Below, in pieces: positions 8,868-22,120 of a stretch of 23,872 nucleotides of DNA. A program made the position numbers and the translations under genes. The notes beneath the pieces are model-generated. The model did not search any database, was not told where the DNA came from, and saw only the letters and a list, made by a program, of their open reading frames with translations. Every line of letters begins with the position of its first letter. Positions within the stretch are counted from its first letter, which is position 1. The stretch is from an archaeon. GTDB taxonomy: Archaea; Iainarchaeota; Iainarchaeia; Iainarchaeales; Iainarchaeaceae. Where the stretch lies: assembly GCA_035289485.1 (NCBI GenBank), contig DATDXA010000049.1:1-23872 (forward strand), read 5' to 3'.

Positions 8868-9104
8868 ATGAACATCAATCTCGGAACGCCATATGAAGTT
8901 GCAATAGAGAAAATAATGCAAAAGGGATATGCCGGCAGCCAGACAGAAGTGATAAGGCAGGCAATACTCGCATATGAGCGCATGATAGATGAGGAAGAAG
9001 TAATGCTTGTAAATAAGGGAATAGCGGACGAAATGGAGAAAATGCGTGCAAACATGAAAAACACGAAAACGCTCTCAGAAGTGAAGAAAAAATACGGGCT
9101 GTGA
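8868..9104 (+). CDS. Ribbon-helix-helix (ParD/CopG-like) antitoxin
   Basis: MNINL beta strand followed by GYAGSQTEVIRQAI; C-terminal TLSEVKKKYGL; GGTGA RBS at 8859-8863; sits directly upstream of a toxin-like ORF. Confidence 0.75.
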   Translation: MNINLGTPYEVAIEKIMQKGYAGSQTEVIRQAILAYERMIDEEEVMLVNKGIADEMEKMRANMKNTKTLSEVKKKYGL

Positions 9105-9108
9105 AAAT

Positions 9109-9371
9109 TTGGAGCCCATATTTTCCCAAAAAGCCCAGAAGGACCTATAGACCAGATGGATAATGCCCTCAGGAAAATGTTCTTGAGCCACGTGGAAAAA
9201 ATAATGGCAAACCCCAAACAAAGGCACATGCGCCACGGCCTGCCGTTCTTTGTCGAGGAAGTGACAGGCAATGCACGGATGGTTTACAATTTTGAGGGGG
9301 AAACCATTTACATTTTGAGATGCTTTGCCGCGCACAAGGAATACGAGAAATGGTACAAGAGCTACAAATGA
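9109..9371 (+). pseudogene. RelE/HigB-like mRNA interferase toxin, apparently frameshifted by a 2-nt (TA) insertion
   Basis: TTG 9109 reads MEPIFSQKAQKDL then TAG (9148-9150). Removing TA at 9148-9149 joins it to DQMDNALRKMF...RMVYNFEGETIYILRCFAAHKEYEKWY, giving a RelE-sized protein of about 86 aa. Confidence 0.7.
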
Positions 9372-9413
9372 ACTGGGATTCAAATAAATACAACAAGCGA
9401 CAAAATATTAACC

Positions 9414-10244
9414 ATGGCAAACCCAATAGAAATGCAATTGATTTCCAGGGTGGAACTATTGGTGCACCCTTTCTTTGCACTGGAAAATGCACGGGTTAAA
9501 GGTGAGGCTGATTCTTTAAGGCACACGAGCGAAGAAGAAATATCTGAAATTTACTCGACAATCAATATAGCAAATAACTGGAAAAGAAAAATGCTAAGAA
9601 TCAGGAACAACCCTAATGCAATTATGCTCATAATCGGGCCGCAGCAAATGGAAACTGAGCGCATGCAGAGATATTTTTACAGGGGAAAACTGACGCCAAA
9701 GAAACTGGCACAATTTTCCCAGCAGTACAGGGAATTGCTCACATTCGCAAGAAAAACACTTGGAAAGCGGCTTTTTTTTGTCAGTCAGGAAATAGCTGGA
9801 AATGAATATTATTTGTCGAGATTAATGCTTTCACGCAAGATGGTTCCTGCAAAGGATGTTAGAGTTTACGGATATGGCGAATATATTGGCATAAAGGAAA
9901 AGCAATGCGTTGAACAAAATTCAGAAGCACTGGAAACTTTCTTCAAAAAATTTCAGGAACAGGCTCATGGCAATGGAACCAGAACCCAAATGAATGTGGT
10001 GCATGCGCCAAAGGTTGGCGATAAGTTCTCTCGGCTTTCAATAAAGCACGGTAATCTTATGGATGAGAGAATTTTTGGCAGACTTGACAAGGGCAGACCT
10101 GTTTCGCCGTTATATTTGGCCTCTAATTTTCATTGGATGGATGGCGCACAACTTAAAGATGCAATCCGTATCGCAAAAAGCTATGCGGAAGTGCACAGAA
10201 AAGGACCTAAGCCAAGGGAAACAAAAAGGGCTAAGTTTAAATAG
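9414..10244 (+). CDS. Hypothetical basic protein (276 aa)
   Basis: Long ORF, visibly more AT-rich than the neighbouring housekeeping genes; no confident family assignment. Confidence 0.75.
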   Translation: MANPIEMQLISRVELLVHPFFALENARVKGEADSLRHTSEEEISEIYSTINIANNWKRKMLRIRNNPNAIMLIIGPQQMETERMQRYFYRGKLTPKKLAQFSQQYRELLTFARKTLGKRLFFVSQEIAGNEYYLSRLMLSRKMVPAKDVRVYGYGEYIGIKEKQCVEQNSEALETFFKKFQEQAHGNGTRTQMNVVHAPKVGDKFSRLSIKHGNLMDERIFGRLDKGRPVSPLYLASNFHWMDGAQLKDAIRIAKSYAEVHRKGPKPRETKRAKFK

Positions 10245-10352
10245 CCTTATAGGGGCAAATACATATGATTTTCATGGCAAGAAGGGATTTACTTTGGAAC
10301 CAAGCAGGTTTTGAGTGAAGTAACTAGCCATCTGCAAGTCTCTGATTCTTAT

Positions 10353-10360
10353 TTTATAAA
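10353..10360 (+). promoter_or_regulatory. TATA box for the leader/tRNA-Trp (and probably trp-aro) transcript
   Basis: TTTATAAA; typical archaeal spacing puts the transcription start near 10379-10384, where GC-rich structured sequence begins. Confidence 0.6.
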
Positions 10361-10380
10361 GTTCTTTTCCCTATACGCGT

Positions 10381-10495
10381 GGCTCTGGCCAAGTAATTGA
10401 AAGCATTGGAAAGCCTGCAAATCGGAAAGTGATGCCAGGCCTATCGAGCCCATCAGGGCGAAGATAAGGCGCTTCCTTCCGACAAGCAGGTCGGA
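10381..10495 (+). ncRNA. Candidate structured leader RNA abutting the tRNA-Trp 5' end
   Basis: Hand-folded hairpins: GCCTATC-GA-GCCC(ATCA)GGGC-GAA-GATAAGGC at 10439-10470 and TCCGAC(AAGCAG)GTCGGA at 10478-10495. GGCTC (10381-85)/GAGCC (10446-50) and CCAA/TTGG are alternative pairings. Confidence 0.45.
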
Positions 10496-10568
10496 GGGGT
10501 TATAGCATAACCTGGTAGTGCGTCTGGCTCCAGACCAGATGATCTGGGTTCAAATCCCAGTGACCCCA
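10496..10568 (+). tRNA. tRNA-Trp (anticodon CCA), intronless, CCA end not encoded
   Basis: Acceptor stem GGGGTTA/TGACCCC with discriminator A; D stem GCAT/GTGC; anticodon arm TCTGG-CTCCAGA-CCAGA (CCA at 10530-10532); T arm CTGGG-TTCAAAT-CCCAG. Confidence 0.97.
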
Positions 10569-10572
10569 AACC

Positions 10573-10599
10573 CTTTTCTTTCGTTACACGAAAGAAAAG
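10573..10599 (+). promoter_or_regulatory. Perfect 12-bp inverted repeat that includes the post-tRNA pyrimidine (terminator-like) tract
   Basis: CTTTTCTTTCGT-TAC-ACGAAAGAAAAG. The repeat itself is certain; its function is inferred. Confidence 0.6.
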
Positions 10600-10680
10600 C
10601 GTTTACGGAAAAGAAAGTGTAAAAGCCAAAGCTTTGCCAAAAAGAAAAGAAATAATTCCAAAAAGCACGCGGATGAAAAA

Positions 10681-12288
10681 ATGCAGGGAACTGAAAATCT
10701 AAAAAATGCCACTGCCGGCACGATTGTAACGCTCTATGAGGAGCATGACGCAAAAATGGGCGCTGTCGAATATTTCGCACGCCTCTCCGATTACGGGCGC
10801 AAAAAGGATTCAATACTTCTTGAGAGCGCAGACATCATCACAAAATACGGCGAGAAGAGCATTGGCTCGGCAAGCCCCTGCCTGAAGGCGATAGGTAGGG
10901 GGAGAAAATTCGAAATTGCCGCGCTCAATGAAACCGGAAAAAAATTCCTTCTGCACGTAAAACCAAAACTTTTGTTTGCAAGGAAACTGAAAATATCTGA
11001 AAACCAAATAAGTGGGGAAATCCGAAAAATGGGGGCCATGATGAGCGAATCACAAAAGCTCAGGGACGGCAAAACCGCAATGGATGTTCTGCGCGCAATA
11101 GCATTCGCGCTAAAGCCCCTCAACTCCCCGTTCCCGGTGAGCGCAGGGCTCATGGGAACAATCGCATATGATTTCATTGACCAGTTTGAGGACCTTCCCG
11201 CAAACAAAAAGGACGTTCTCAAAGAGCCGGATTTTGAAATGAATTTCTATGACAATTTATTTTTGCTTGACCACAAAAAAGGAAAAATCATTTTCATCGC
11301 AAATGCGCTGATTTTCGCAGAAGAGGACAAGGAAAAGGAAATGCAAAGGTGCCAATCGGTGCTTGATGGGTATGAAGCGGCACTTTCCGCGAACATGCCC
11401 CTTCGAAGGCACGGGGAGCTTGGAAAAATAAAGGTGCAGACCGACACTTCGAAAAAGGAATTCGTGAAGGTTGTAAAAAAACTAAAGAAGAACGTGCTCG
11501 CAGGGGACATTTTCCAGGTGGTTCCATCAAGGACAATGATTGCAAAGTACAACGCAGAGCCGCTTGACATCTACTCAAGCCTCAAGCAGCTAAACCCGAG
11601 CCCTTACATGTTCTACTTTAACAATTCTGCGGGAATTTTGCTCGGAAGCAGCCCTGAAACTTTCATAAAAGTCGAGGGCGAGGGCAGGAAAATTGTGGAA
11701 ATCAGGCCGATTGCAGGGACAAAGCCGCGCGGGCTCAATGCGCGCGGGGAAATTGACACTGAACTTGACCGCAAGTATGAAGATGAGCTCAAAATCGACC
11801 GCAAGGAACTTGCGGAGCACACGATGCTAATTGACCTCGCAAGAAATGATGTTGCGCGCGTCTGCGAACCCGGAACGCGCGCGTGCGAAAAGCAGTTCAT
11901 GGTTGAGAAATATTCGCATGTGCAGCACCTTGTGAGCAGTGTCACAGGCACTCTGCGCGCGGAATACGACGCGCTGCACGCATACCTCGCTTCAATGAAC
12001 ATGGGAACGCTAACTGGCGCTCCGAAAGTTGAGGCGATGAAGCTCCTGCGGCTGAATGAGAAAACGAGAAGAGGGTTTTACGGCGGAAGCATCGGGTATC
12101 TCATGCCTACGGGGGATTTCGATTCTGCAATTGTGATCAGGAGCATGAGCCTACAGAAGGGAAAGGCATACATCCGCGCGGGCGCGGGGATTGTTTATGA
12201 TTCAAACCCTGAGCAGGAATTTTTGGAAACCGAGAGGAAGGCGCGCGCGTGCCTGAAGGCAATTGAACTTGCGGAGGGGAATAAATGA
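10681..12288 (+). CDS. trpE: Anthranilate synthase component I
   Basis: LLESAD, GDIFQVVPSR, NPSPYMFY, PIAGTKPRG, KELAEHTMLIDLARND and GTLTGAPKVEAM. Confidence 0.97.
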   Translation: MQGTENLKNATAGTIVTLYEEHDAKMGAVEYFARLSDYGRKKDSILLESADIITKYGEKSIGSASPCLKAIGRGRKFEIAALNETGKKFLLHVKPKLLFARKLKISENQISGEIRKMGAMMSESQKLRDGKTAMDVLRAIAFALKPLNSPFPVSAGLMGTIAYDFIDQFEDLPANKKDVLKEPDFEMNFYDNLFLLDHKKGKIIFIANALIFAEEDKEKEMQRCQSVLDGYEAALSANMPLRRHGELGKIKVQTDTSKKEFVKVVKKLKKNVLAGDIFQVVPSRTMIAKYNAEPLDIYSSLKQLNPSPYMFYFNNSAGILLGSSPETFIKVEGEGRKIVEIRPIAGTKPRGLNARGEIDTELDRKYEDELKIDRKELAEHTMLIDLARNDVARVCEPGTRACEKQFMVEKYSHVQHLVSSVTGTLRAEYDALHAYLASMNMGTLTGAPKVEAMKLLRLNEKTRRGFYGGSIGYLMPTGDFDSAIVIRSMSLQKGKAYIRAGAGIVYDSNPEQEFLETERKARACLKAIELAEGNK

Positions 12289-17293: not shown

Positions 17294-18548
17294 AATAACA
17301 CCACTTGGAAAAATCAACGCGGTTTTCACAGCGCCGCCCTCCAAAGCGCACACCCTTCGCGCGCTTTTCATAGCATCTCTTGCCCAGGGAAAGAGCGTTC
17401 TGCGAAATGCGCTCTATGCCGATGACCAGAAGGTTGCGGCAAATTCCCTTTCTGAATTCGGCGCAAAAATTACGCGCAAGGGGGATGATTTTGTCGTGGA
17501 AGGAACCGGAGGGGAGATTTCTGCGCCGCAAAAGCCCGTGTTTACCGGAATGTCAGGGGTGACAACAAGATTCATTGTCCCGTTTGCAGCTCTCGCAAAC
17601 GGAAAGAGCACAATTGATGGGGAAGCGCGCATGAGGCAGAGGCCGATTAAGGAAATAACCGATGCTCTTGTCCCGCTCGGAGTTGAATGTGAGCTTTCAG
17701 ATGAAGGAACGCTTCCGGTAACAGTGCACGGAGGCAATTTCGAGGGCGGAAAAACGCAGCTTAAGGGCTCTGAGAGTTCGCAATTTCTCAGCGGACTTCT
17801 TATCGCGGCACCATATACAAAAAACGGGGTACATGTGAAAATCGACGGGGAATTAAAGTCCAAGCCATATGTGGACATCACGATTGAGTGCATGAAATCT
17901 TTCGGGGTCGCGGCGGTGAACAGGCAGTACAAGGAATTTTTTGCCCCTGGAAAGAAAAAATATGCCGCGCGCGAGTATGATATAGAGGGCGATTACAGCT
18001 CTGCGTCATATTTTTTTGCAGCCGCGGCGGTCACGGTCGGGAAGGTGCGCGTGAAAAATCTCAACCCGCATTCGAAGCAGGGAGACAAGTTTTTTTTGGA
18101 ATGCATCGAAAAAATGGGATGCGCTGTGAAATACGGGAAGGATTTTGTCGAGGTAAAGGGCGGGGAGCTTCGGGGAATTTCGGTGGACATGGCAAATTGC
18201 CCCGATATTGTGCCAACGCTTGCTGTGGTGGCTGCATTTACTGATGGAAAAACAGAAATATTGAATGTGGGGCATCTTGCGGGCAAGGAGAGCAACAGAA
18301 TCAAGAGTGTTGCGAAGAATTTGCGCGAATGCGGAATCGTTGTGAAAGATTCGAAAGATTCGCTTGAGATTATTGGCGGGAAGCCGCACGGCGCGGACAT
18401 CGAGTGCTTCAATGATCACAGGATTGCGATGGCGTTTTCAATTCTTGGATTGGCCGTGAGCGGCGTTAGGATAATGCAGCCGGAAGTTGTTTCGAAAAGC
18501 TACCCGGAGTTTTATGATGAGCTTGCAAAGGGGTTGATGGCCAAATGA
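17286..18548 (+). CDS. aroA: 3-phosphoshikimate 1-carboxyvinyltransferase (EPSP synthase)
   Basis: PPSKAHTLR, RQRP, SSQFLSGLL, KESNRI, DHRIAMAF and KSYPEF. Confidence 0.96.
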   Translation: MIEITPLGKINAVFTAPPSKAHTLRALFIASLAQGKSVLRNALYADDQKVAANSLSEFGAKITRKGDDFVVEGTGGEISAPQKPVFTGMSGVTTRFIVPFAALANGKSTIDGEARMRQRPIKEITDALVPLGVECELSDEGTLPVTVHGGNFEGGKTQLKGSESSQFLSGLLIAAPYTKNGVHVKIDGELKSKPYVDITIECMKSFGVAAVNRQYKEFFAPGKKKYAAREYDIEGDYSSASYFFAAAAVTVGKVRVKNLNPHSKQGDKFFLECIEKMGCAVKYGKDFVEVKGGELRGISVDMANCPDIVPTLAVVAAFTDGKTEILNVGHLAGKESNRIKSVAKNLRECGIVVKDSKDSLEIIGGKPHGADIECFNDHRIAMAFSILGLAVSGVRIMQPEVVSKSYPEFYDELAKGLMAK

Positions 18549-19060
18549 ACATAGCATTTATCGGGTTTAGGGGGACTGGGAAAACCACCATAGGGAAGAG
18601 GGTTGCAAAAAGGCTGAACATGAAATTTACAGATATAGATAAGGAAATCGTGAAAACCGCAGGAAAAAGCGTTCCGGAAATTTTCGCGCAATCCGGAGAA
18701 GAAGGATTTAGAATCCTTGAGAGAAAGGCGGTTGCGGATATTAGTTCGCAGGACAATATGTGCATTGCATGCGGCGGCGGGGTTGTCCTCTTCAAGGAGA
18801 ACATTGATAACCTTAAAAGGAATTCAACAATTATACTGCTTGAGGCGCAGGCGCGAGTTATATACCGAAGAATCAGAAATGACAGCAACAGGCCCTCACT
18901 TACAGGAAAGGAAAAAATGGATGAAATAATACAGCTCCTTGGCGAGCGCGAGCCGCTTTATGAGGCAGCAGCCGAGATGAAGTTTGACACTTCGCAGGAT
19001 TCAGTTCCGCAAACTGTGCAGAAGATAATTGATGAGCTAAATGAAAGAGGGAAAATATGA
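18545..19060 (+). CDS. aroK: Shikimate kinase, bacterial P-loop type
   Basis: GFRGTGKTT Walker A, IFAQSGEEGFRILE, CGGG, RP lid motif and REPLY. Confidence 0.95.
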   Translation: MNIAFIGFRGTGKTTIGKRVAKRLNMKFTDIDKEIVKTAGKSVPEIFAQSGEEGFRILERKAVADISSQDNMCIACGGGVVLFKENIDNLKRNSTIILLEAQARVIYRRIRNDSNRPSLTGKEKMDEIIQLLGEREPLYEAAAEMKFDTSQDSVPQTVQKIIDELNERGKI

Positions 19061-20196
19061 GTACTGTTGTGAAAGTGAAGCTTAGCAGGAAAATTGATGA
19101 TAGCTACGCGATTGTAATAGGCAGCGGCCTTTCGAAATCACTGGGGAAGCAGATTGTGCGGGACGGGTTTGGGGGAAAATACTGTATCATCACGGATTCG
19201 AACACGCAAAAAATCTTCGGAAAGAAGCTGCTCTCGCAACTGCGCAGCGCAGGCGCGCACGCGCAGATGATTGTGTTCTCCGGTGGAGAGGAAAACAAGA
19301 ATATTTCTTCGGTTGAAAAAATACTCGAGCAGATGCTTGCAAAAGGCTTTGGCCGCAGGGATTGTATTGTGGCGCTTGGGGGTGGAATTGTGGGGGATGT
19401 TGCGGGGTTTGCGGCTTCGGTTTATTTGCGCGGGATAAATTTCGTGCAGGTGCCAACAACACTGCTTGCAATGGTTGATTCCAGTATCGGTGGAAAAACC
19501 GGGGTGAACCTCTCAGAGGGAAAAAACAGCGCGGGCGCATTTTACCAGCCAAAAAAAGTTTACATCTGCCCAGAGCTTCTCAAAACCCTTCCGGAGAATG
19601 AAATGCGCAACGGCATGAGTGAAATTGTAAAGCACGCGATAATGTTTGATGCAAAGTTCTTTGCGTATTTGGAAAAAAACCTCGGAAAAATCATGAAGCT
19701 TGATTCGAAAACTCTTGAATACGTGATTAAGAGGAACTGCGAACTCAAGGCAAAAGTGGTTGAGAAGGATGAATTGGAATCGAATTTCAGAAGGGTGGTG
19801 AACTACGGGCACACGATAGGCCACGCGCTTGAAGTGCTCACAGGATACAAAGGGATGAGCCATGGCGAGGCGATTTCAATTGGCATGGTCTCTGAAGCGG
19901 TGATTGCTTATGAAATGGGGCTCATGAAAGCACATGATATTGACAAAATAGCCAATCTGCTACATAAAATAGGGTTGCCAATTGATTTGCCAAATATTGA
20001 GATGGAAAGCATCCTCTCGGCCACTCGAAAGGATAAAAAAGCAGTTTCGGGCAAGGTTTATTACTCTCTGCCAGCGGGCATCGGAAAGGCCACGAGAAGC
20101 AAGGGACAGTATGGTATTGAAGTAAGTGATGAAATGGTGCGAAATTCCCTGGGGTGCTGCGATGATAATTGTTCCTGTTGTTGCGAAAACTGTTAG
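19057..20196 (+). CDS. aroB: 3-dehydroquinate synthase (bacterial-type, DAHP-using)
   Basis: ALGGGIVGDVAGF, PTTLLAMVDSSIGGKTGVN, NYGHTIGHALE, HGEA and DKK. Confidence 0.96.
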   Translation: MSTVVKVKLSRKIDDSYAIVIGSGLSKSLGKQIVRDGFGGKYCIITDSNTQKIFGKKLLSQLRSAGAHAQMIVFSGGEENKNISSVEKILEQMLAKGFGRRDCIVALGGGIVGDVAGFAASVYLRGINFVQVPTTLLAMVDSSIGGKTGVNLSEGKNSAGAFYQPKKVYICPELLKTLPENEMRNGMSEIVKHAIMFDAKFFAYLEKNLGKIMKLDSKTLEYVIKRNCELKAKVVEKDELESNFRRVVNYGHTIGHALEVLTGYKGMSHGEAISIGMVSEAVIAYEMGLMKAHDIDKIANLLHKIGLPIDLPNIEMESILSATRKDKKAVSGKVYYSLPAGIGKATRSKGQYGIEVSDEMVRNSLGCCDDNCSCCCENC

Positions 20197-20851: not shown

Positions 20852-21663
20852 TAGATGCAAAAACACAGCTCTTCTGCCTGCTTGGAAAGCCCGCAAAGCA
20901 TTCGCTCTCTCCAATGATGCACAACGCCGGGTTTAGTGCGATAGGGATGAACTGCATTTACCTCGCATTCGAGCCGGAAAACCTCGCAGGCACAGTAAAG
21001 GGCCTTCGCGAACTTGATGTCGGCGGTTTCAATGTCACGATGCCGTTCAAAACCGAAATAATTCCGCTTCTCGATAAGGTCGATGAGATGGCGAAAAAAA
21101 TCGGGGCAGTGAACACCGTGGTGAACGAGAACGGGAAGCTTGTTGGGTATAATACTGATGGGGTTGGAGCTGTTGCCGCGCTAAAAAAAGTTACGCCGCT
21201 CGCAGGGAAAAAAATACTTCTGCTAGGGGCCGGCGGCGCAGGAAAAGCGATTGCGCACTACCTTGCAAAAGAGAAAGTGCAGCTAACAATTGCGGACAAA
21301 ACAAAATCAAAAGCTGAGGAACTTGCAAAAGCGGTGGGTTCGCAGGCTGCCCTTTCTGATGGGATAAAGTCCCTGGAAGGGTTTGATATCGTGATTAATG
21401 CATCCCCCGCAGGGATGAAACCGGATGTGCAGGGCACGCCGGTTCCGGTGAGCCTTTTGCACAAGAATCTTGTTGTGTTTGATATTGTGTATGAGCCTTT
21501 GGAAACAAAGTTCTTGCGCGAGGCAAGGCTTAAAGGATGCAAGACCATAAATGGGGTGGAAATGCTGCTTGAGCAAGGGTTTGCGGCATTTGAGCTGTTC
21601 GCGCAAAGGCGTGCTCCGCAGGAAAAGATGCGCGAAGCTTTGATGAATGGTATTGGAAGATGA
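20848..21663 (+). CDS. aroE: Shikimate dehydrogenase
   Basis: HSLSPMMHN, NVTMPFK, GAVNT, GYNTDG, GAGGAG and DIVYEP; TTGA overlap with aroD. Confidence 0.96.
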   Translation: MIDAKTQLFCLLGKPAKHSLSPMMHNAGFSAIGMNCIYLAFEPENLAGTVKGLRELDVGGFNVTMPFKTEIIPLLDKVDEMAKKIGAVNTVVNENGKLVGYNTDGVGAVAALKKVTPLAGKKILLLGAGGAGKAIAHYLAKEKVQLTIADKTKSKAEELAKAVGSQAALSDGIKSLEGFDIVINASPAGMKPDVQGTPVPVSLLHKNLVVFDIVYEPLETKFLREARLKGCKTINGVEMLLEQGFAAFELFAQRRAPQEKMREALMNGIGR

Positions 21664-21667
21664 ATTG

Positions 21668-22120
21668 ATGCGCCCTACAAAAAAGCCGAATTTGACGATG
21701 AATAAAGGGCCGAATTCAGGAGTAAAGTTGAGCGTTTCAAGACCTAGGGGAGCAACAATGGAAGCTTATAGAGTTATAGCAGGGCAAAAAACATACAAGC
21801 GGGCTGCCGGTGAAAAAATAGTGAGTCGATTAGGCGCGTATGGAAAAAAAGGCACAATGGATTTTGTGGTAAATGAAGGTGAAGCCGAAGTTTTTAGAAG
21901 TGTACCTGAACACGAACAGCACACAGGAATCGGAACCGATTTGCTTTTGGCTGCGGAAAATATGGCCAGAAAAATGGGAATACCAAAAGTGGTGGCAGGG
22001 ACAAGCAATCCGCAAGCGATAAAAACATATAAAAGGGCAGGATGGAAGTATGTTAGCAGTTACACTAATAATGGGAAAAAAATGTTTGTATATCAAAAAA
22101 TGGTAGGTGCGAAAAAATGA
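21668..22120 (+). CDS. GNAT-family acetyltransferase-like protein
   Basis: Motif A-like VPEHEQHTGIGTDLL and motif B-like NPQAIKTYKRAGW; start uncertain (21647-21668). Confidence 0.75.
   Translation: MRPTKKPNLTMNKGPNSGVKLSVSRPRGATMEAYRVIAGQKTYKRAAGEKIVSRLGAYGKKGTMDFVVNEGEAEVFRSVPEHEQHTGIGTDLLLAAENMARKMGIPKVVAGTSNPQAIKTYKRAGWKYVSSYTNNGKKMFVYQKMVGAKK

Follow-up and report, generated by a model that had tools for sequence, protein, structure and literature searches.

The window considered here is a complete 23.9-kb contig (DATDXA010000049.1) of a member of the Iainarchaeota. It carries a gene for tRNA-Trp ahead of trpE, the first gene of a long trp-aro operon, and ahead of both lies a short leader open reading frame (ORF) with a single Trp codon. 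With a probability of roughly 0.55, the whole is a Trp-regulated transcription unit in which the sensor is the leader ORF, containing a programmed +1 frameshift site that would read charged tRNA-Trp, and not the tRNA itself. The architecture of the leader and its conservation are observed in the genomes compared; from them we infer the frameshift, its dependence on charged tRNA-Trp and, in genomes with a tRNA gene inside the unit, the effect on the genes downstream. The initial annotation of this region had proposed a new archaeal Trp-sensing system built on the co-transcribed tRNA: the locus does look like such a system, but the tRNA-based mechanism is not supported.

A canonical TATA box (TTTAAATA, 10236–10243, forward strand), here called promoter P1, starts 38 nt before the ATG of the leader ORF. 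The latter (10274–10318, forward strand) encodes in its initial, or 0, frame the 14-codon peptide MARRDLLWNQAGFE, and its only Trp codon (10295–10297) forms part of a candidate +1 shift site, CTT_TGG_A (10292–10298), with the Leu codon CTT in the P site and the Trp codon TGG in the A site. A Shine-Dalgarno (SD)-like stretch, AGAAGGGAT (10280–10288), ends 3 nt before the CTT codon. A TrpE search over 215 genomes of the phylum found the protein in 42, and the trpE-upstream regions of 37 loci were examined. Across the phylum, 30 of these 37 have a TATA-led short ORF with one Trp codon, arranged in the order TATA box, start, 4–11 codons, SD-like word, 3 nt, CUU or CCC, UGG. A box of the P1 type is found 23–52 nt upstream of the short ORF in all 30 loci; TTTWAAAW boxes are also present at other tRNA genes of this genome. 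Of the seven loci in which the cassette was missed, four are on contigs that end 0–567 nt upstream of trpE.

At the nucleotide level the conserved core consists of a GUGAU, GGGAU or GCGAU-like word, three nucleotides that mostly end in A, and CUU_UGG. The P-site codon is CUU in 28 of the 30 loci and CCC in the other two, UGG is next in every case, and both CUU_U and CCC_U permit the P-site tRNA to re-pair one base forward. At 17 of the 30 sites, GGC is the next codon in the +1 frame. The genome holds no second copy of the full cassette with TATA box and ATG. UGG is presumably slow to decode, to judge from the single copy of tRNA-Trp (one among the 35 tRNA genes detected in the 90%-complete assembly) and from the rarity of Trp, which accounts for 20 of the 6486 codons (0.3%) in the window's genes. 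CUU makes up 35% of the Leu codons in the same genes.

The SD-like word was assessed by its pairing with the 3' tail of 16S rRNA. A search of the window's own genome for 16S rRNA found nothing, and the tail (...GGAUCACCUCCU) was taken from two relatives, archaeon GW2011_AR10 (AR10, also G038) and G037, and its pairing was tested with the 12 nt that precede the P-site codon. The shift sites average −6.6 kcal/mol and the 6106 control positions −3.5 kcal/mol. Pairing of −6 kcal/mol or better is found at 25 of the 30 sites and at 15% of the controls, and the stretch in the window reaches −6.5 kcal/mol.

After the site, the three reading frames behave alike in all 30 loci: the 0 frame stops within 1–7 codons and the −1 frame within 2–17, while the +1 frame stays open for 28–135 codons or more. 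The genome contains 886 CTTTGG sites, and a comparable frame pattern is seen at only 9.7% of them. In the window, the +1 frame past the shift site (10296–10400, forward strand) reads GTKQVLSEVTSHLQVSDSYFIKFFSLYAWLWPSN up to its stop codon; it has no ATG or GTG of its own, only one TTG 19 nt past the site, and the predicted trans-frame product is a peptide of 41 residues ending in ...YAWLWPSN. In four relatives (G037, G101, G052 and G104) the +1 frame is the TrpE frame itself. When the G037 product is aligned with the window's TrpE by BLASTP, residue 12 past the shift falls opposite residue 5, with 56% identity over 542 residues. In three of these four fused loci no ATG occurs from the site up to the TrpE core, and by eye the candidate starts in that interval have no SD-like word in the preceding 20 nt. 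In two further genomes the +1 frame ends on the trpE start. The stop of the +1 ORF in G175 lies within a GTGA that overlaps the GTG start, itself preceded by GGTGAT, and in G040 two sites in tandem lead to a stop within AAATGA, which overlaps the trpE ATG. The tandem arrangement in G040 (locus L017) stems from an 18-nt leader core (AGAAGGGATTTACTTTGG) that is present twice, approximately 170 and 100 nt before trpE; the second copy lies in the +1 frame of the first, so that the ribosome would have to shift twice in succession before arriving at the trpE start. In the remaining loci, the window included, the +1 ORF has about 30–40 codons and ends near the tRNA leader.

The chief rival to a frameshift is ordinary initiation at overlapping starts, in which the short ORF is a plain upstream ORF, the +1 ORF or TrpE is initiated at a GTG or ATT inside the SD-like word, and the two starts compete. 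A GTG does lie in the +1 frame 8 nt before the CUU in 10 of the 30 loci, among them all four in which the +1 frame is fused to TrpE, and by eye ATT occupies that position in most of the others. Against this, ATG, GTG and TTG are all absent from 8 of the 30 +1 ORFs, and in 17 of the 30 no such codon occurs up to and including the site. The GTG, again by eye, has no SD-like word before it and follows the 5'-proximal ATG by 7–10 nt. Furthermore, a ribosome stalled at the UGG would cover the GTG, which means that starvation would lower TrpE, the wrong direction, and the constant CUU or CCC before UGG would be left unexplained. Because of the missing starts, the lack of SD-like words, the direction of the response and the unexplained P-site codons, competing starts are judged unlikely.

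The +1 ORFs that stop short of TrpE have features of their own. In the window, the codons TGG CTC TGG (Trp-Leu-Trp; 10380–10388, forward strand) stand near the end of the +1 ORF, within the 5' arm of a small hairpin (z-score −0.3), and a W-x-W motif is found at the end of 18 of the 26 non-fused +1 ORFs, to be compared with the 0.3% of Trp codons in the window's genes. A T-rich tract (10345–10372, forward strand) with two T4 runs also lies inside the +1 ORF. Of the 26 non-fused loci, 21 have a run of T5 or longer in the interval bounded by the 0-frame and +1 stops; the four fused loci have no such run. The best-conserved block of the +1 frame, 15 codons compared over six relatives, varies at 7 first, 5 second and 12 third positions of its codons, an excess at the third position that fits translation in this frame. 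The T-rich tract includes TTTTATAAAG (10352–10361), which the initial annotation had read as the TATA box of the unit, at 10353. This assignment calls for correction: the sequence sits in the conserved +1 frame, as the codons for Y-F-I-K-F, and the better, canonical box is P1, 117 nt further upstream and outside the region then annotated. TTTTATAAAG itself could act as a promoter, could be an oligo-T tract, or could have no role beyond coding.

Such signals are central to another explanation, leader-peptide control by stalling only, in which the ribosome halts at the single UGG with no change of frame, and transcription termination or RNA processing is altered as a result. The conserved +1 frame would then reflect DNA or RNA signals (the TATA-like box, the T tracts and the hairpin) and not translation. 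Conservation of the short ORF, its TATA box and its Trp codon, followed by T-rich tracts, is what this explanation predicts as well. It does not account for a +1 frame that is open in all 30 loci, runs into TrpE in four, reaches the trpE start in two and ends with W-x-W in 18 of 26. The nucleotides of CUU_UGG are constant, yet the amino acid at the second codon before Trp differs among loci (L, S, R or C, and N in G081). Stalling by itself thus has a distinctly low probability.

The gene for tRNA-Trp(CCA) (10496–10568, forward strand) was identified by ARAGORN and scores as an ordinary tRNA against the Rfam tRNA model (68.3 bits); it forms a cloverleaf with a CCA anticodon, has no intron, and its 3' CCA is not encoded. 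The ATG of trpE (10681) follows it on the same strand at a distance of 112 nt, as first described. Upstream sequence of any length is available for 36 trpE loci, and in 25 of these trpE is preceded on the same strand by tRNA-Trp, so that the linkage, the persistence of which in related genomes had been named beforehand as a condition for the original proposal, is indeed kept. Several of the linked genes contain archaeal introns of 26–136 nt. In G027, AR10, G162 and G170 the gap between tRNA and trpE start is only 10–26 nt, and because this leaves no room for a promoter, tRNA and trpE must, on the sequence, share one transcript in these four relatives. Co-transcription in cis, as initially suggested, is therefore supported by comparison. 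Also in agreement with the original description, no canonical TATA box (TTTAAA, TTTTAA or TTTATA, searched by eye) is present between tRNA-Trp and trpE in the window. The AR10 locus (L015) is arranged differently in detail: from a site 420 nt before trpE, the +1 frame continues for 135 codons without a stop, passing through the tRNA-Trp gene, and ends 1 nt before the TTG start of trpE, itself preceded by GGAGG. The AR10 leader also contains three copies of a UAAACGG...CCGUUUA hairpin.

The linkage is not universal. No tRNA is found between the short ORF and trpE in 8 of the 30 cassette loci (G037, G040, G101, G104, G052, G164, G175 and G081), and in G101 tRNA-Trp is an ordinary stand-alone gene 129 kb from trpE, with a TATA box approximately 35 nt upstream and a T7 run at its 3' side. 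As the cassette is kept in the eight loci that have no intervening tRNA, the constant partner of trpE in the loci compared is the short ORF, not the tRNA. The same observations bear on the simplest explanation of all, that there is no regulation, that tRNA-Trp and trpE are neighbours by inheritance only, and that the short ORF arose by chance or is some small gene with no connection to them. All of the evidence is comparative and comes from a single phylum, which leaves this some room. Yet only one copy of the cassette exists in the genome, it accompanies trpE whether the tRNA has been gained or lost, and its +1 frame is repeatedly joined to TrpE, making an absence of regulation the least probable of the explanations, and extremely so.

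The RNA elements on both sides of tRNA-Trp are generic. The initial annotation described about 115 nt of hairpin-rich leader before the tRNA. The structure is there, but a Trp-specific leader it is not, as most of it is a 69-nt copy (10427–10495, forward strand; 67.7 bits with covariance model R1) of a multi-copy RNA with 34 matches in this genome, ending at position −1 of the tRNA. This RNA begins with a hairpin (invariant AUCGAG / CGAAGAU, with a GA/GAA internal loop) followed by an H-type pseudoknot, in which the loop of the second hairpin pairs with the 3' tail. In alignment A2, built from 14 of this genome's copies, pairing is kept in 90.5% of cells, and both sides change in 15 of the 21 pairs; no shuffled or slid control comes close. 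R1 also has 29 and 13 matches in two relatives of the same family, 9 in G101, 3 in AR10 and 1 in G037. The copies end 0–2 nt upstream of tRNA-Trp, tRNA-Lys, tRNA-Ile and tRNA-Leu(GAG), and a few nucleotides upstream of the start codons of many other genes, each copy ending 0–8 nt before a tRNA 5' end or, often, a housekeeping start codon. By reading of their N-terminal sequences only, the latter genes encode RNA polymerase subunits, EF-2, ATP synthase, ndk, dUTPase and ribosomal proteins. A covariance model of the leader, as had been suggested for the tRNA hypothesis, thus does find covariation, but the element it describes marks three other tRNAs and many housekeeping genes. Copies elsewhere in this genome include C64:9403–9473(−), C64:11332–11402(−), C43:10858–10931(+), C36:4603–4671(+) and C40:1880–1948(+), with 28 more. 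One gene with the same motif at its 5' side, a tRNA-Ile with the anticodon TAT (C36:4669–4743), is at the extreme end of its contig.

No Rfam family corresponds to the leader RNA or its intergenic region. The RNA may be a processing element, an element that protects 5' ends, or a protein-binding (K-turn-like) leader; its invariant words appear to fit the K-turn pattern of a 3-nt bulge and then tandem sheared G·A pairs beside a Watson-Crick stem, but the covariation favours the register with a GA/GAA internal loop between two regular helices. Three other identities were rejected by eye: a box C/D guide RNA (there is no D box), a hammerhead (the core does not fit) and a small coding ORF (the copies are in different frames).

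On the 3' side, the perfect 12-bp inverted repeat of the initial annotation is confirmed as a pyrimidine/purine hairpin (10573–10584 / 10588–10599, forward strand; arms CTTTTCTTTCGT / ACGAAAGAAAAG, 3-nt loop TAC) that begins 4 nt past the tRNA. It is followed at 10602–10652 (forward strand) by purine-rich extra copies of its 3' arm (GGAAAAGAAAG, AAAAAGAAAAGAAA), each after a TTTAC or TTTGC word. By a strict pattern, hairpins of this kind adjoin at least 11 of the 35 tRNA genes, 4 at their 3' ends and 7 at their 5' ends, and four further 3' cases were seen by eye. The family (arms of the CTTTTTCTTTCTCTT type) lies 3' of some tRNAs and, mirrored, 5' of those for Ser (three genes), Glu, Tyr, Val and Cys; other sites in this genome are on C43 after 11005, C21 before 20669, C18 before 6071, C13 after 24267, and C16 after 257 and 5456. 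In two relatives the hairpin-plus-repeat element is found within the tRNA-Trp intron (L012 of G006, 88 nt; L068 of G112, 136 nt) and not 3' of the gene. Such hairpins possibly protect the new end of the neighbouring RNA after tRNA excision, or serve as terminator or insulator. The TGTACC and TTTACC words 3' of tRNA-Trp were considered as a TrpY box and dropped, since the same words follow other tRNAs.

Since both flanking elements are found at other tRNAs, and the leader RNA at housekeeping genes as well, neither has any specificity for Trp as far as sequence can tell. This weighs on the hypothesis that folding of the co-transcribed tRNA-Trp, its processing by RNase P or RNase Z, or the binding of TrpRS sets the read-through or stability of the trp-aro mRNA. 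The linkage in 25 of 36 loci, the four lineages with trpE 10–26 nt past the tRNA, and the +1 frame of AR10 that traverses the tRNA to within 1 nt of the trpE start all speak for it. With the flanks generic on both sides, eight lineages that keep the cassette with trpE and no tRNA there, a tRNA that scores as an ordinary one, and no T-box match in an Rfam cmscan of 9000–12000 (E ≤ 1; only the tRNA and one chance match), the tRNA, or the RNA directly around it, is a very improbable sensor. A simpler reading offered at the same time, co-regulation of tRNA-Trp supply with Trp synthesis, is possible.

The mechanism favoured here, a programmed +1 frameshift within the leader ORF, would operate as follows. 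Transcription would start from the TATA box at 10236 and translation at the ATG at 10274, bringing the ribosome to CUU_UGG with peptidyl-tRNA-Leu in the P site. With charged tRNA-Trp abundant, UGG would be decoded and translation would stop 6 codons on. With charged tRNA-Trp scarce, the A site would remain empty, tRNA-Leu would re-pair from CUU to UUU, assisted by contact of the upstream SD-like stretch with the 16S tail, and translation would continue in the +1 frame. In genomes with no inserted tRNA, the +1 frame either is the TrpE frame or ends on the trpE start, and TrpE synthesis would rise directly as charged tRNA-Trp falls. In the window and most relatives, +1 translation would run about 35 codons further, over the T-rich tract, to the W-x-W before the tRNA leader. 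For this type the preferred version is that ongoing translation would prevent early termination by RNA polymerase (anti-polarity or attenuation). The polymerase would then arrive at tRNA-Trp more often and, reading through the generic hairpin after the tRNA, also at the trp-aro genes. A shortage of charged tRNA-Trp would thereby raise both the tRNA and the amino acid, and in this light the position of the tRNA-Trp gene makes sense: lying within a unit that senses charged tRNA-Trp, it would be subject to feedback together with the amino acid, an arrangement not far from the simpler reading of co-regulated tRNA-Trp supply and Trp synthesis.

Several points weigh against this interpretation, in addition to the GTG before the shift site. 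The evidence is comparative throughout and from one phylum, in which related genomes are not independent samples. The +1 ORF of the window stops short of trpE, so that the link from frameshift to trp expression is a presumed one, and the T runs of the window are only T4. In the best-conserved +1 block, codon pairs differ by 47 synonymous and 82 non-synonymous changes, and the third-position excess is moderate. Three trpE-bearing genomes (G176, G156 and G177) have no such ORF in at least 888 nt upstream. A crude scan of the genome for comparable cassettes before other operons (TATA box, short ORF, CUU or CCC, and a +1 frame of at least 60 codons) gave 27 matches, none convincing. Finally, strong attenuation ahead of the sole tRNA-Trp gene would be costly if the same promoter drives the tRNA.

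The host genome (1.16 Mb, 90% complete) is archaeal. The named relatives by TrpE are Candidatus Iainarchaeum and AR10, both DPANN archaea, an archaeal RNase P RNA is present, and the relatives have archaeal-type tRNA introns. A scan for sigma-70 promoters and terminators gave nothing useful, the host being an archaeon. The gene trpE (10681–12288, forward strand) encodes anthranilate synthase component I (Pfam Chorismate_bind, 5e-77) and has an SD-like word of its own, GGATGA, 6 nt upstream of the ATG. As initially described, it opens a trp-aro super-operon on a single strand, which extends to 23184 in the order trpE, trpG, trpD, trpCF, trpB, trpA, aroA, aroK, aroB, aroD, aroE, a GNAT gene and aroC. 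The aro part includes a bacterial-type shikimate kinase (Pfam SKI, 18545–19060) and a 3-dehydroquinate synthase (19057–20196), and the GNAT acetyltransferase gene (21647–22120) is inserted between aroE and aroC. Upstream of the unit lies an ORF at 9414–10244, the stop codon of which is overlapped by the P1 box. The statement that the window holds no regulator gene stands for TRAP and TrpR, neither family having a match among the 23 window ORFs scanned; no test was aimed at TrpY.

Tentatively, the finding can be generalized: Iainarchaeota may gauge charged tRNA-Trp by the decoding speed of one UGG, slowness at which would cause a +1 frameshift that in some genomes directly makes anthranilate synthase and in others, including the window, carries the ribosome towards the sole tRNA-Trp gene and the trp-aro operon. 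If true, this would be archaeal Trp regulation that needs no protein regulator, and a new and very simple coupling of amino acid supply to enzyme synthesis. One practical consequence concerns annotation. TrpE has no ordinary start codon in several of these genomes, and for that reason may be mis-annotated in DPANN archaea, where it risks being shortened or scored as defective by gene callers and in metabolic reconstructions. At about 25 nt the cassette is portable, and can therefore be tested directly in reporters.

Among known systems, units that combine tRNA and mRNA include the E. coli tRNA-tufB operon and the haloarchaeal tRNA-like t-elements that are cut by RNase P and tRNase Z. The window shares with them a tRNA 5' of protein genes on the same strand, with no room for a separate promoter in the four relatives noted above, and differs from them in having a tRNA that is cognate to the pathway, with a leader ORF on one side and the operon on the other. 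T-box, TRAP and TrpY systems likewise place trp genes under the control of tRNA-Trp charging or of Trp; the absence of a T-box match and of TRAP and TrpR sets the window apart from the T-box, TRAP and TrpR systems. The likeness to trpL attenuation lies in a short ORF with Trp codons upstream of trpE and a hairpin overlapping Trp codons, and the leader is enriched in Trp as expected of such a peptide, with a Trp codon in the 0 frame of all 30 loci and W-x-W in 18 of 26. In contrast to trpL, no conserved terminator/antiterminator pair with a U run has been established, and the Trp-rich peptide would be reached only via the change of frame.

The closest parallels are +1 frameshift sites. As presented in the available part of a 2016 review (PMC5009743), the site of RF2 shifts from CUU to UUU before a slow UGA with the help of an SD stimulator, and the CUU_AGG_C site of Ty1 reaches approximately 40% shifting at a slow codon. 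The resemblance to RF2 (prfB), within the same portion of that source, extends to a short first ORF, the P-site change from CUU to UUU, a slow A-site codon beginning with U, an internal upstream SD-like stimulator, an early end of the 0 frame, and a +1 product that relieves the slowness. It differs in that the A-site codon here is the sense codon UGG (30 of 30 loci), not a stop, the quantity sensed would be charged tRNA-Trp and not the release factor, the host is an archaeon, and the product of the +1 frame is, in most genomes, a Trp-rich leader peptide instead of the enzyme itself. Ty1 and ABP140, as far as the same excerpt covers them, resemble it in that tRNA-Leu on CUU slips by +1 when the sense codon that follows is slow, with GGC as the next +1 codon. 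The tRNA of the slow codon in Ty1 is constitutively rare and gives a fixed ratio, whereas here the slow codon is that for Trp and stands upstream of the genes that make Trp, which suggests feedback.

In regard to precedent, the accessible part of the 2016 review says of hungry-codon frameshifting that yields useful trans-frame proteins that “no examples are known” (PMC5009743). A 2021 review of archaeal recoding, in the portion available, lists one demonstrated cellular frameshift, a −1 event in fucA1, and in that portion makes no mention of leader-peptide control (PMC8211752). A literature search, with subscription-only papers outside its coverage, found no archaeal case of leader-peptide control and nothing on a Trp-codon frameshift leader, on archaeal tRNA-Trp/trpE linkage or on trp regulation in Iainarchaeota. 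Within the limits of these sources, the leader would, if the frameshift is real, be the first hungry-codon frameshift in nature to yield a useful product, and would provide both the first conserved +1 frameshift and the first amino acid control of the leader-peptide type in cellular archaeal genes. It would also amount to an RF2-like feedback loop for a pair of tRNA and amino acid. On this comparison the system is not a T-box, TRAP, TrpR or classical attenuator; it would belong with the programmed +1 frameshift sensors.

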